Assembly (NCBI RefSeq): GCF_002854065.1
Contig: NZ_CP024147.1
Source of the DNA: Escherichia coli
GTDB taxonomy: Bacteria > Pseudomonadota > Gammaproteobacteria > Enterobacterales > Enterobacteriaceae
Strand: one strand, 5' to 3'
Length of the DNA stretch: 64,000 bases
Part shown: in pieces, positions 21,626 to 43,242 of the stretch
How the letters are laid out: each line of letters begins with the position of its first letter
Position numbering within the stretch: the first letter of the stretch is position 1
Translations under genes and position numbers: made by a program
Notes under the pieces: generated by a model
Seen by the model: only the letters and a program-made list of their open reading frames with translations
Database searches by the model: none
What the model was told of the DNA's origin: nothing

Positions 21626-22516
21626 TTAGTGGCTTTGCGCGATAAGATCGTCTGGTGAAAGTCGGGTCACCATCATAACTAACTCTCTGTCTAAACCTCT
21701 ATCCAGCATCTCCTGAGCAATACGCAGGGCTTCTTCGTGTTTGCCCTGCATTGCGCCTTCTTCACGTAATCTGTCAGCAATGGTCATCAGTTTCTCCTTT
21801 TCTTGTGGTGCGCGTTCTGTTATCTCACCAATAAATGCACGGAAACGCTGGGCATCTCCCGTTTGTAATACATAATTAAACAGGGCTTTTAGCTGTCTGT
21901 CATTAGTGTTCCCTGTAACTAGCAGCGAAACAATTTGGTCGACTAATCCCAACAGATCGCGCTGACGAATATGTTTCTGAATTAACTCCAACAGCGCCAT
22001 TTTGCGATGTTGCATAATCTCGTCATCCGGCACCACGGTAATATCCACCAACGGAAAAGCCGATGAATATATTTTACGGGCAATCGCAGGCTCGGCAAAT
22101 TCATCAAGCCAGCAGAGTGAATAAGGATAAGGACTTCTGCAACCATGATAAAACAGCATCGGGATCACCAATGGAAGCTCTTTATAGCCCGCATCAAGCT
22201 GGTTTTGCATTGCCGCAATGGAATAACGCATCATGCGAAAAGCCATTAATTCTTCCGGCTTACTTTGGTGCTCTATCACTACATAAATATAACCCACTCC
22301 CTCCTGCGTTTTCACAGACCACAAGAGGTCGGAATAATATTGCCGCAGGTCTTCATCAATAAAACTGTTTGGTTCCAGTTTAAGCGTCGTTAAATCACAC
22401 AGTTTGCGCAGCGGCGCGGGAAGATGAATATCAATAAAATCCCGCGCGGTGTCTGGATGGCGTAAAAAAGATTTAAATACCGCATCATGCGGCGTGGAAG
22501 TTGTCGATATTGTCAT
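21626..22516 (-). CDS. rpnB: recombination-promoting nuclease RpnB (YhgA-like, PD-(D/E)XK family)
   Basis: 296-aa product recognised as YfcI/RpnB. Confidence 0.85.
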
Positions 22517-22712
22517 GGCGTTCCGTCACCCCTCAAATTTAAGATGACGCGACAATAACCACGATTAACACCCAATGCAGCAGGCAGTTTTTATCTTTGG
22601 ACAGCGAATTCAGAAGTATTTTTAGCGGACTGCAAATTTTACATTTCAGCGGAAGCTGACTCGCAAATTCCCCTTGAAAATACTCCGGCAGCGTTAGCCA
22701 CCGGAGAGGCAA

Positions 22713-23486
22713 TTATTTCAGCGAACCTTTAAGGAACTGTTGCAGACGAGGGCTTTGCGGGTTGCCAAATAACTGCTCCGGCGCGCCTTCTTCCTCTATT
22801 TTCCCCTGATGGAGGAAAATGACGTGAGTAGAAACATGACGAGCAAAGCCCATTTCGTGAGTCACTACCACCATGGTTTTCCCCTCTTCTGCCAGTTGCT
22901 GCATAATGCGCAACACTTCGCCTACTAGTTCAGGATCGAGCGCCGAGGTAGGTTCATCAAACAGTAAAACTTCCGGTTCCATTGCCAGCGCCCGCGCTAT
23001 GGAAACACGCTGTTGCTGACCACCGGACAGGTGCACCGGGTATTTCCCCTGCGCACGTTCGTCTATCCCGACTTTTGCCAGATACTTCACCGCCCGCTCG
23101 CGCGCTTCCTGCTTGCTCAGGCCCAACACCTGAATCGGCGCTTCCATGACGTTTTCCAGCACCGTCATATGGCTCCAGAGATTGAAGTGCTGGAATACCA
23201 TCGTCAGGCGTGTGCGCAGTAAGCGCAGTTGATTTTTATCGGCGACTTTGAGTTGACCGTCTTTGTCGCGCACCAGATTGATCGTCTGGCCATTGACCAC
23301 GATCGACCCTTCACTCGGTTTTTCGAGGAAGTTAATGCAGCGCAGAAAGGTACTTTTCCCCGATCCCGACGATCCGATGATGCTTATTACATCTCCGGCA
23401 TTCGCTTGCAGTGAGACCCCTTTCAGCACTTCGTGTTCGCCGTAGCGTTTGTGCAAATCGATAACGTTTAATTTATTCTCGGACAT
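22713..23486 (-). CDS. hisP: histidine/lysine/arginine/ornithine ABC transporter ATP-binding protein
   Basis: 257-aa product with Walker A (GSSGSGKST) and ABC signature (LSGGQQQR); recognised as HisP. Confidence 0.95.
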
Positions 23487-23493
23487 CGTATTC

Positions 23494-24210
23494 TCAGTGC
23501 GTTGAAGACGGTTTCACATGCTGCAACCAGCGTTTTTCCGCTCTGCGAAAGAGGCTGATCAGGACATAAGAGATGATTAAATAGAGCACCGCGGCAATGC
23601 CGAAGGCGGTAAAAGGTTGATACGTGGCGGCGTTAATATCGCGGGCTATTTTCAGCAGATCCGGCACAGTGGCCGTAAACGCCAGCGCAGTAGAATGCAG
23701 CATCAGGATCACTTCGTTGCTGTATGCCGGTAACGCAATACGCAGCGCAGAAGGCAAAATAATGCAGCGATACATTTTAAAAGTCGAGAAGCCATAGGCT
23801 CTGGCGGCTTCAATTTCCCCATGCGGAACCGAACGGATTGCCCCAGCAAAAATCTCGGTAGTGTAAGCGCAGGTGTTAAGCGTCAGCGCCAGCACGGTAC
23901 AGTTCAGGCCACTGCGGAAAAAGGCGTTAAGAAACTCGGTCCCCTTAACAATCTCCAGCGTATACATACCGGAATAGAACACCAGCAACTGAACATACAG
24001 CGGCGTACCGCGAAAAATATAGGTAAATAACCAGATTGGAAACTGGATGTATTTATTACTGGAGACACGACCAATCGCCAGAAACAGCGCCAGAACTCCG
24101 CCTATCACTACCGACAAAATAAGCAGCCACAGAGTGATCGCCACGCCGGTAAAGCGATAACCGTCGGTCCACAGCAGCGGTTTCCAGTATTCATGTAAGA
24201 TTTCGATCAC
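23494..24210 (-). CDS. hisM: histidine ABC transporter permease HisM
   Basis: 238-aa membrane product recognised as HisM; overlaps hisQ by 4 bp. Confidence 0.93.
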
Positions 24211-24893
24211 AGGTCAGCCCTCTTCACACCCACGGAGTAGCGGCGCTCAAGGAACAGCAGCACACCATTGGAAACGGTGGTGAAAACCAGGTAAATCACG
24301 CCACAAACGATAGCGAAATAGAACGGTTCCCAGGTACTTTTGCCTGCCAGCTGCGTGGCTTTGACCACATCTTCCAGGCCGAGTAACGAAACCAGTGCGG
24401 TAGATTTGAGGATCACCTGCCAGTTGTTTCCAATGCCTGGCAGGGCGTAACGCATCATCGCCGGAAACATGATCCGCCGAAACACTTGCCCACGAGTAAA
24501 ACCAAACGCCGTCGCCGCCTCTATATGTCCTTTCGGCACTGCCATAAAAGCACCACGGAACGTTTCGGTAAAATAAGCACCGTAGATAAAACCGAGAGTA
24601 ATAATACCAGCGACCATCGGATCGATATCAATCTGCCCGACGCCCATCGCCTCCGTCACCGTGTTTAGTGCAATCTGCAAACCGTAGAAAATCAGCAGCA
24701 TCAACACTAAGTCCGGCACGCCACGAATCAGCGTGGTGTACCCTTCGAAAATCAGCCCCGAAAGCCGATTTTGCGAGAGCTTACCGCCAGCGCCAATTAA
24801 ACCGATGATTACAGCGAGCACTACAGAGCTGATAGCCAGCTCCAACGTGACGAGCGCCCCCTGTAAAATAACACCTGAAAACCCATACAACAT
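24207..24893 (-). CDS. hisQ: histidine ABC transporter permease HisQ
   Basis: 228-aa membrane product recognised as HisQ. Confidence 0.93.
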   Translation of the reverse strand: MLYGFSGVILQGALVTLELAISSVVLAVIIGLIGAGGKLSQNRLSGLIFEGYTTLIRGVPDLVLMLLIFYGLQIALNTVTEAMGVGQIDIDPMVAGIITLGFIYGAYFTETFRGAFMAVPKGHIEAATAFGFTRGQVFRRIMFPAMMRYALPGIGNNWQVILKSTALVSLLGLEDVVKATQLAGKSTWEPFYFAIVCGVIYLVFTTVSNGVLLFLERRYSVGVKRADL

Positions 24894-24982
24894 GCTGCCT
24901 GTCCTGTCGTGTGTGGTGAATTACCGCCTCTTGTCTCCCTCCGGTTACCCGAAGGGAGCTGGCTTTCTTTCACCGATGGCGA

Positions 24983-25765
24983 TTAACCGCCATAAACATC
25001 AAAATCGAAGTACTTTTTCGCTAATTTCTCGTAAGTACCGTCAGCGCGCATTTCTGCAAAGGCTTTGTTCAGTGCCTCGCGCAGTTCGTTATCTTCTTTA
25101 CGCAGGCCCATGCCGGTCCCTACGCCAAACAGTTTTTCATCTTTAACAGACGGGCCACCGAATTTGTAATCTTTACCGACAGGTTGTTTGAGGAAACCTT
25201 CGCTGGCAGCGACCTCATCCTGGAACGCGGCATCAATACGTCCGGCAGTCAGGTCAGAATAAATGTTGTCCTGCCCCTGATACGAGACGATTTCAATGCC
25301 TTTTGGTGCCCAATGTTCATTACCGAACGTCTCCTGGGTGGTGCCCTGCAATACGCCTACCCGTTTGCCTTTCAGCGACTCGACTGTCGGCTGAATGTCA
25401 GAATTTTTCGCCACCACCAAACGAGAATCGGCAGCGTACAGTTTGTCGGTGAAGGCTATTTCTTGCTGACGTTTTTCCGTAATGGAAAGCGATGACATGA
25501 TGGCGTCAATCTTCTTCGCTTTTAAGGACGGGATTAACGCATCCAGCGGATTTTCGACAAACGTACATTGCGTATTGATGCGTTTGCATAATTCCTTTGC
25601 CAGATCGATATCGAAGCCAACCAGTTCGCCTTGTGAATTTTTTGATTCAAATGGCGCATAGGTCGGGTCGGTACCGATGCGGATGTTTTGCGGAATCGCA
25701 GCAAATGCCGCAGTTGCGCTGGAGAAGGCCAGAACCAGAGAGAGCGATAGCACCAGTTTTTTCAT
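24983..25765 (-). CDS. hisJ: histidine-binding periplasmic protein HisJ
   Basis: 260-aa product with signal peptide; recognised as HisJ. Confidence 0.93.
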
Positions 25766-25985
25766 AATGTCCTCAACTGACAGTCTTTTTATAGGGAATA
25801 TTTACAGGTTTGTTACACTTATCGTGCCATAAAATTGACCATCAAGGCAAAATATCCCGCCCCGTTAGACGTATTATTTTTCATTAAAAATGCTTAAGTA
25901 TGCATTTCAATGCACCACGATAGTGCAACAAACCTGGCGTGCACCATGATGATCATTCCATCAGGTACAGCTTCCCAGCGACGTA

Positions 25986-26768
25986 TCAGTCACCGTAGAC
26001 ATTAAAGTCAAAATACTTTTTCGCCATCTTGTCGTAGGTGCCGTCCTGACGCAGCTCGCCAAGCGCCTTATTGAAGGCAGCCGTCAGTTCAGCATCATCT
26101 TTACGTAGCCCTACACCGGTGCCATCACCGAAGTATTTTTTGTCTTTCACTGATGAGCCAGCAAAGGCGAAGTCTTTACCAGCAGGTTGCTTGAGGAATC
26201 CTTCGCTGGCGGCGACTTCATCCTGTAATGCCGCATCCAGACGTCCTGCAGCCAGATCGGAATAGACCAAATCCTGGTTGGCATAGGCCACCACATCCAC
26301 ACCTTTGCTACGCCAGGTCTCGTTAGCGTAAGCTTCCTGGGTTGATCCCTGCAGCACACCAACATGTTTACCTTTCAGTGAATCCAGCGTTGGCTGAATC
26401 GGCGAACCTTTGGCGGCAATCAAACGAGAATCTGCGGCGTACAACTTGTCGGAGAAAGCAATCTCCTGCTGACGTTTATCGGTAATGGAGAGCGACGAAA
26501 TAATGGCGTCGATTTTTTTCGCTTTCAGTGAGGGGATCAGCGCGTCAAAGTCACTGGCAACCCAGGTACATTTCACCTGCATCCGTTTGCACATCTCGTT
26601 ACCGAGATCGATATCAAAGCCAACAAAATCACCTTTAGCATCTTTCGACGAGAACGGCGCATAGGTGGTATCGGTTCCGATACGTACCGTCTCCGGTAGC
26701 GCCGCATAGCTGGAAGCCGCTGCGGAGAGACCGACTAACAAAGACAGAGCGAGAATCGACTTCTTCAT
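25986..26768 (-). CDS. argT: lysine/arginine/ornithine-binding periplasmic protein ArgT
   Basis: 260-aa paralogue of HisJ; recognised as ArgT. Confidence 0.93.
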
Positions 26769-26843
26769 ACATAACCCTCAAGTGAAAATGGCTTTTTTAT
26801 GTTGTGTATTGTGTTGTGTGTTGTGTGTTTGCAGGCTCTTTCA

Positions 26844-26859
26844 TGCAGGTCTTATGCCA
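26844..26859 (-). promoter_or_regulatory. candidate sigma-54 (-24/-12) promoter element for argT
   Basis: Gene-strand sequence TGGCATAAGACCTGCA has GG and GC at the correct -24/-12 spacing, about 75 bp upstream of argT ATG; argT is known to be nitrogen-regulated. Confidence 0.5.
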
Positions 26860-27040
26860 TCTTGACGACAACAGTAACATTCAACGTTAAATGTGTTAAT
26901 AAGACGTTGCATTATTGTCCTGAAGTTGAAGATAGCAGGTATAGCGGTTGAATCGCAGCGTTTCGATTGAATGGCAGAAACAAAATGTCGAGGATTTGAT
27001 CGCGGTTGCAAAATTGCCCTGAAACAGGGCAACAGCGGAG

Positions 27041-27610
27041 TTATGCGCCCTGCCAGCGGGCAAAGAGATCTTCAGGAAGGGTTATTGCAAACTGGTCAAG
27101 AACACGATTAACCGTCTGATTTATCACATCATCAAGGGATTGCGGGCGATGATAAAACGCCGGAACGGGAGGCATAATCACCGCACCGATTTCTGCTGCC
27201 TGAGTCATTAAACGCAGATGACCTAAGTGCAATGGTGTTTCACGCACGCAGAGCACCAACGGGCGACGCTCTTTCAGCACCACATCTGCCGCACGGGTCA
27301 GTAAGCCATCAGTATAGCTATGGACAATGCCGGACAGGGTTTTGATTGAACAGGGTAAAATCACCATCCCCAGTGTCTGGAAAGAACCGGAAGAGATGCT
27401 GGCGGCAATATCGCGCGCATCATGCGTGACATCAGCTAATGCCTGCACTTCGCGCAGGGAAAAATCCGTTTCGAGGGATAAGGTCTGGCGCGCCGCCTGG
27501 CTCATCACCAGATGCGTTTCGATATCTGTGACATCGCGCAGAACCTGTAATAAACGCACGCCATAAATCGCGCCGCTGGCACCGCTGATGCCTACAATGA
27601 GTCGTTTCAT
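27041..27610 (-). CDS. ubiX: flavin prenyltransferase UbiX
   Basis: 189-aa product recognised as UbiX. Confidence 0.93.
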   Translation of the reverse strand: MKRLIVGISGASGAIYGVRLLQVLRDVTDIETHLVMSQAARQTLSLETDFSLREVQALADVTHDARDIAASISSGSFQTLGMVILPCSIKTLSGIVHSYTDGLLTRAADVVLKERRPLVLCVRETPLHLGHLRLMTQAAEIGAVIMPPVPAFYHRPQSLDDVINQTVNRVLDQFAITLPEDLFARWQGA

Positions 27611-29913: not shown

Positions 29914-30362
<449 letters not shown>

Positions 30363-39654: not shown

Positions 39655-39742
39655 TTGGCGTTAGTGCCGGAGGCCGCATTGGCGCGTAACGTCGGATGCG
39701 ACGCTGGCGCGTCTTATCCGACCTACTCCGGCCTACTGCGAA
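39655..39742. repeat. REP/BIME element between yfcJ and fabB
   Basis: REP-like motifs (cggatgcgacgctggcgcgtcttatccgacctac) in intergenic space directly 3' of fabB. Confidence 0.6.

Positions 39743-43139: not shown

Positions 43140-43242
<103 letters not shown>

Follow-up and report, generated by a model that had tools for sequence, protein, structure and literature searches.

What does the hairpin between hisJ and hisQ do for the histidine transport operon of E. coli? An earlier note had pointed to an imperfect inverted repeat in the gap between the two genes. It proposed that the repeat acts as an mRNA stabiliser or a partial terminator, as described for the Salmonella his transport operon. 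A protective hairpin is one of the standard means by which bacteria let a single operon yield periplasmic binding protein in excess of membrane transporter. The hisJ-hisQ hairpin is already published as a 3' protective structure (Dar & Sorek 2018), so it matters little as a discovery. New in the present analysis are a hairpin in this gap in all 80 species compared, a REP doublet in the same slot, and a likely GcvB site downstream. We see the added value as modest: the locus is a clean comparative example in which unrelated hairpins or REP sequences occupy one slot across the Enterobacteriaceae.

The locus and the fold of its hairpin

We analysed a stretch of 64,000 nt, called the window here, which belongs to the E. 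coli chromosome. A 501-nt query at the hisJ-hisQ gap matches 5425 of 5426 complete E. coli genomes, and the matched loci are annotated hisJ and hisQ. The genes run on the minus strand in the order argT (25986-26768), hisJ (24983-25765), hisQ (24207-24893), hisM and hisP. The periplasmic histidine-binding protein is encoded by hisJ, the stabilised upstream cistron. The permease gene hisQ is the first of the less stable downstream cistrons hisQMP. Between the hisJ stop codon UAA (24985-24983) and the hisQ AUG (24893-24891) lies a gap of exactly 89 nt (24894-24982), the length the earlier note had given. A scan for promoters and terminators found no sigma-70-like promoter in the hisJ-hisQ region. 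A 137-aa open reading frame on the plus strand (24733-25146) spans the gap; we rejected it as a mechanical ORF that has no support.

The inverted repeat forms a core stem-loop on the minus strand (24935-24958), CUCCCUUCGG-GUAA-CCGGAGGGAG, given both by the predicted fold and by Table S6 of Dar & Sorek 2018. Its 5' arm is at 24958-24949, its loop at 24948-24945 and its 3' arm at 24944-24935. The arms are 10 nt each, 4 nt apart and 90% complementary, so the repeat is imperfect as claimed; the letters first quoted for it were a plus-strand reading. On the transcript the sole mismatch is a U.G wobble and the stem has 10 bp. The minus-strand transcript does fold stably here, as had been supposed. 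The isolated hairpin has a free energy of -19.9 kcal/mol (z -4.68), and none of 200 dinucleotide shuffles is equally stable. The whole gap reaches -44.1 kcal/mol (z -5.40). In a 152-nt context all 10 stem pairs have a probability of 1.0. The hairpin starts 24 nt past the hisJ stop codon, and the stem ends 41 nt upstream of the hisQ AUG.

An intrinsic terminator is a G+C-rich hairpin followed directly by a U-run, and this hairpin is not one. There is no U-tract 3' of the stem, where the sequence is ACAAGAGG (tail ACAAGAGGCGGU). The consensus terminator scan leaves the hairpin uncalled, whereas it calls the one after hisP. No Rfam 15 covariance model matches in the gap at E <= 10 (scan of 22500-27200). 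We also rejected a terminator for the antisense (plus) strand. Its tail CTGGCTTTCTTTC is merely moderately T-rich and is unconserved in Enterobacter, and there is no plus-strand gene to terminate. It must be noted that position 24960, two bases ahead of the stem on its 5' side, is A in the window but C in K-12-type strains and nearly every other E. coli. This A costs one predicted extension pair and leaves the 10-bp stem unaffected. Only 3 of 5425 genomes are identical to the window across the 44-nt hairpin region.

The core hairpin is nested in two short helices, identified from the fold and the repeat. GCC (24963-24961) pairs with GGC (24928-24926), and GGUGAA (24974-24969) pairs with UUCACC (24920-24915). 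The 5' strands (24961-24974) lie around an A-rich spacer, and the 3' strands occupy 24915-24928. The stabilised hisJ RNA ends at 24929 with a single-stranded tail, ACAAGA (24929-24934), according to a published Term-seq end that we placed by sequence. The outer-helix 3' strands are downstream of this end and so are absent from the processed hisJ RNA. The 10-bp hairpin is predicted to survive there with its 6-nt tail. In the same RNA, GGUGA (24974-24970) is predicted to pair instead with UCGCC just upstream. Between genera the outer helix shows covariation, with UA:27/CG:9 and GC:29/CG:10, and switches between UA/GC and CG/CG. A further small hairpin, AUGGCG-GUUAAU-CGCCAU, comes from the fold and a repeat and carries the hisJ stop codon in its loop (24976-24993, minus strand). 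We treat it as an accessory of uncertain significance. It is unconserved, and other E. coli strains weaken it by having TCACC in place of TCGCC.

The 44-nt hairpin region occurs at one place per genome (median 1) in 5425 of 5426 complete E. coli genomes and never on plasmids. The 64-kb window holds no second copy with up to 3 mismatches. A REP or BIME element would be dispersed and multi-copy, an imperfect palindrome of about 35 nt with the enterobacterial consensus, and the E. coli hairpin is none of these. There are 12 matches to the REP core motif in the window, all of them outside the hisJ-hisQ gap. Eight of them form a REP/BIME cluster at 29931-30340, about 91 bp apart and in alternating orientation, with a ninth about 91 bp upstream (29931-29946). 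Three further copies are at 39711-39726 and 43165-43205. These repeats are unrelated to the hisJ-hisQ hairpin.

One slot and many stems in the Enterobacteriaceae

For comparison we took the hisQ loci of 80 Enterobacteriaceae species and extracted each hisJ-hisQ gap. A strong hairpin is present in 80 of 80, mostly at -18 to -33 kcal/mol. The 8 nt 3' of the stem contain at most 4 U in any species. Several groups of stems can be told apart, and no alignment is possible between groups. Escherichia has the arms found in the window, 5' CUCCCUUCGG and 3' CCGGAGGGAG, and some Citrobacter have CUCCCUCCUGC and GCGGGAGGGAG. Enterobacter, Lelliottia, Leclercia and Kosakonia share CCCCUCCC and GGGAGGGG. 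Klebsiella and Raoultella have CCAUCGCGCGC and GCGCGCGAUGG, and Pseudocitrobacter has CCGUCGCCCC and GGGGCGACGG. The 5' arm is CCCAUCGYUUCG in Kluyvera, GCCGCCG... in Pluralibacter, GGACCCGGC in Superficieibacter and GCGCCCCGGC in Atlantibacter. The loops vary while the stems are kept: GUAA, GCUA, AAGAGC, UGAU and others are found, the first three within Escherichia alone. Such free variation argues against recognition of a specific loop.

Within the groups that do align, the pairing is maintained by compensatory change. RNAalifold predicts the hairpin from the Klebsiella/Kluyvera/Pluralibacter alignment, with compensatory changes at 7 of 11 pairs. In the Klebsiella/Kluyvera set 92.3% of cells are paired, versus 31-57% in slid-partner controls; 41 cells are double changes, a number reached by 0 of 500 shuffles. 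The Escherichia/Citrobacter/Enterobacter set has 92.1% of cells paired and 35 double-change cells (0 of 500 shuffles as high), in an alignment that was fitted to the structure by a covariance model and so leans towards it. MAFFT had put the Escherichia 5' arm one column off register, which weakened RNAalifold, and the realignment corrected this. These sequences are related, and the double changes of both sets trace to few independent lineages. The whole-gap z-scores are modest across species, with a median of -2.4 and non-negative values in 2 of 77. They are a weak test because the composition of C-runs and G-runs folds well even when shuffled. We argue from the 80 hairpins and the covariation counts that what is conserved in this slot is structure rather than sequence.

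Two peculiarities of these gaps deserve mention. In Escherichia, Citrobacter and Enterobacter the 3' arm (GGAGGGAG or GGGAGGGG) resembles a Shine-Dalgarno sequence and the 5' arm (CUCCC or CCUCC) an anti-Shine-Dalgarno. Klebsiella and Kluyvera have stems without this likeness, which is therefore probably incidental. A record labelled Citrobacter freundii M-21 (L055) has a 289-nt gap with an Atlantibacter-like GCGCCCCG...CGGGGCG hairpin, a ...CACAGGAUAAGCACC leader and an extra insertion of about 190 nt. The label may be wrong, or the locus may have arrived by transfer.

The slot is not always filled by a short hairpin. Salmonella and most Citrobacter have gaps of about 138-190 nt with REP sequences, one or two copies per slot (L006-L008, L010-L012, L015-L021 and L023-L025). 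These gaps keep the flanks GATAAAGCCC and AAAAGAGGC...CACCACACACGACAGGACAGGC. The REP block takes exactly the place of the short hairpin found in Escherichia and in the R56-type strains of Citrobacter. Four Citrobacter loci (L009, L013, L014 and L022) have a short CUCCCUCC hairpin in place of the REP. Citrobacter has gaps of both kinds, so both states exist within one genus.

The fate of the transcript

Published RNA data bear on the function of this hairpin. Dar & Sorek 2018 (PMC5927463; PLoS Genet 14:e1007354) followed RNA decay and used Term-seq to locate 3' ends. In their Table S6, "E. coli 3' protective structures", hisJ|hisQ has an entry in which the upstream gene is the stabilised one. 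The sequence given before the 3' end is ...GCTCCCTTCGGGTAACCGGAGGGAGACAAGA; its fold has the 10 bp described above and an equal free energy, -19.9 kcal/mol. It ends ...CCGGAGGGAGACAAGA, which places the 3' end at 24929, 6 nt past the stem. According to their Table S3, hisJ mRNA is 5.83 +/- 2.81 times as abundant as hisQ mRNA at steady state. The half-life of hisJ exceeds that of hisQ by a factor of 3.72 in that study (no SD is given) and of 1.39 in the independent data of Moffitt 2016. The earlier note had looked to RNA ends in the gap and to the abundance of hisJ over the permease genes as the signs of such an element, and both are found. In Salmonella SL1344 (Table S5) the hisJ/hisQ ratio is 4.77 +/- 0.47 and the 3' end comes right after ...GCCGCCATCCGGCGT. 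Hairpins of this class lack a U-tract, and the authors' reading is that they stop PNPase and RNase II once an endonuclease has cut the RNA, as at malE-malF. As far as they were available, the RNase targetome tables (PMC10667835) place a site between hisJ and argT but not between hisJ and hisQ. The Term-seq supplements of Adams et al. 2021, in the part available, list neither hisJ nor hisQ. The literature searched yielded no directed mutants of the E. coli stem.

We argue that the hairpin is probably a barrier to 3'-to-5' exonucleases within the argT-hisJQMP or hisJQMP polycistronic mRNA. RNA polymerase would transcribe through it. An endonuclease would then cut the transcript farther downstream, either within the gap or within hisQMP; the only AU-rich patch of the gap, AAUU (24923-24919), is a candidate for that cut. 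PNPase and RNase II would degrade the RNA back towards hisJ and stall a few nt 3' of the 10-bp G+C-rich stem. The remaining translatable hisJ (or argT-hisJ) RNA, ending at ACAAGA, would outlive the hisQMP part, and HisJ would be made in excess of the membrane components from a single promoter. What the published data show is the position of the 3' end and the inequality of hisJ and hisQ in half-life and abundance; the acting nucleases, the position of the entry cut and the causal tie from the stem to hisJ stability are our inference.

The gap holds a neighbouring module. A C/A-rich stretch on the minus strand, CACCACACACGACAGGACAGGCAGC (24894-24918), is conserved across genera and includes the hisQ Shine-Dalgarno AGGA (24905-24902). 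RNAduplex predicts that it pairs with the R1 seed of the small RNA GcvB. For GcvB nt 63-92 the predicted duplex has -23.6 kcal/mol, and 25 of 1000 shuffles are as good. The best 20-nt windows start at 24912-24913, and comparable duplexes are predicted in other species (median -21.7). We used R1 only (nt 63-92), since the full-length sRNA paired with the whole gap from end to end, which is meaningless. Miyakoshi et al. 2021 (PMC9299463) list hisJ-hisQ among the top candidates of the GcvB interactome. They found R1-dependent GcvB repression of a hisJ-hisQ intraoperonic sfGFP fusion, and they list hisQ as a verified E. coli target. This stretch is therefore a likely site of the published repression of hisQ, as far as predicted pairing can place it. 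The stable hisJ RNA ends at 24929, so it lacks the site.

How do other explanations compare with an exonuclease barrier? One can imagine that some polymerases stop at or after the hairpin, intrinsically or by Rho/NusG acting on the C-rich untranslated stretch, so that less hisQMP RNA is made. An RNA 3' end 6 nt past a strong hairpin is what such a partial terminator would leave. The steady-state ratio (5.8) is above both half-life ratios (3.7 and 1.39), so that polarity or termination may contribute to some extent at the level of synthesis; this speaks for partial termination, the main rival. Rut sites are C-rich and G-poor, and so is the downstream CACCACACACGACA stretch. However, the tail ACAAGAGGCGGU has no U-tract, the scan that calls the hisP hairpin passes this one over, and the 8 nt 3' of the stem never reach five U in the 80 species. 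In the bicyclomycin data of Dar & Sorek 2018 (PMC5927463), Rho-dependent termination is not significant at hairpins of this class, and hisQMP must be expressed from the same promoters. We consider partial termination unlikely. Of the two functions proposed at the outset, the stabiliser is borne out by the 3' end and the half-lives, and the terminator is opposed by the missing U-tract and the bicyclomycin results for the class.

It is less likely still that the element serves translation or the access of a small RNA, with the outer helix GGUGAA/UUCACC setting the accessibility of the hisQ ribosome binding site and the GcvB site and the effect on hisJ RNA being secondary. Its UUCACC strand (24920-24915) does abut the CA-rich GcvB target. 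Stern et al. reportedly also discussed, in 1988, intercistronic effects on hisQ translation in Salmonella. GcvB does repress hisQ through R1 in the intraoperonic fusion (PMC9299463). Yet the hairpin leaves the Shine-Dalgarno and AUG unsequestered in the minimum free energy fold, and the inner stem is 41 nt upstream of the AUG. Species with gaps of 57-68 nt retain the hairpin but lack a comparable outer helix reaching the CA stretch. A barrier, moreover, directly explains the mapped 3' end and the differential decay. Finally, the repeat could be a palindrome without function, either a product of chance or what is left of a mobile repeat, for instance a degenerate REP. REP elements fill the slot in Salmonella and Citrobacter, and REP/BIME sequences are abundant elsewhere in the window. 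Nevertheless, the E. coli hairpin occurs at one place per genome, is never plasmid-borne, has no second copy in the window at 3 or fewer mismatches and does not match the REP core. Its structure is maintained by compensatory changes, its z-scores are -4.7 and -5.4, and an RNA end maps to it in vivo. We find it very hard to believe that it does nothing.

The exonuclease barrier thus remains the reading we prefer, and it invites a more speculative extension. GcvB acting on the hisQ leader might trigger translational shut-off and decay of hisQMP, and the stem might keep that decay from reaching hisJ. Any strong stem, captured REPs included, could then fill the slot. We regard this role as a decay insulator as possible, though we would not bet on it. 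If it were true, the binding protein would escape the regulation that hits the permease, and selection would act solely for a strong stem in the slot. Such selection would account for the presence of some seven unalignable stem families, and of a captured REP doublet in Salmonella and Citrobacter, at one position between conserved flanks. Nature has provided a knock-out of the stem. In E. coli TUM14697 (NZ_CP128888.1, at 900-2530) the IS4-like element ISEc13 has inserted inside the hairpin loop, at a place that corresponds to window positions 24945-24953. It made a 9-bp target duplication, TCGGGTAAC, and left the stem arms about 1.5 kb apart. This is the only such case in 5426 complete genomes. 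The turnover of the slot, the likely GcvB site adjoining it downstream and this split stem make the locus a convenient test bed for whether stems insulate cistrons from decay triggered by small RNAs.

Comparison with known systems

The element of Dar & Sorek 2018, Table S6, is the same as the hairpin of the window, bar the strain difference at 24960, where theirs has C. For that study hisJ|hisQ is a row in a catalogue. It includes no individual study, mutation or cross-genus turnover of the locus.

Intrinsic terminators, too, are G+C-rich stem-loops that have an RNA 3' end a few nt beyond them. Unlike them, the hisJ-hisQ hairpin has no U-tract, escapes the terminator scan and must be read through for hisQMP to be expressed. 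The putative GcvB site is distinct from the hairpin and resembles the R1 targets near the start codons of other amino-acid transporter genes: CACCACACACGACAGG is C/A-rich and predicted to be complementary to R1, and hisQ is verified by a reporter.

The REP hairpins of malE-malF (Newbury et al. 1987, as relayed by Dar & Sorek) block PNPase and RNase II after an endonucleolytic cut. By that account the logic is the same: the gene for the binding protein comes first and its mRNA accumulates over that of the membrane components. The malE-malF element is REP-based, whereas the hisJ-hisQ hairpin of E. coli is not.

A further parallel is the one the earlier note had drawn, the his operon of Salmonella, and it holds for position and function but not for the element itself. 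REP sequences in the S. typhimurium hisJ-hisQ intercistronic region are named in the title of Stern, Prossnitz & Ames 1988 (Mol Microbiol 2:141). The Salmonella REP doublet lies in the same slot as the E. coli hairpin, between the conserved flanks GATAAAGCC(C) and AAAAGAGGC. It has the same outcome, a hisJ/hisQ ratio of 4.8 with a 3' end just after the second REP. However, it consists of about 120 nt of dispersed REP repeats, and the E. coli element is a single-copy hairpin of 24 nt with no similarity to REP. Since the REP block is in the same slot in Salmonella, the E. coli hairpin is its positional and functional counterpart, made from another sequence.
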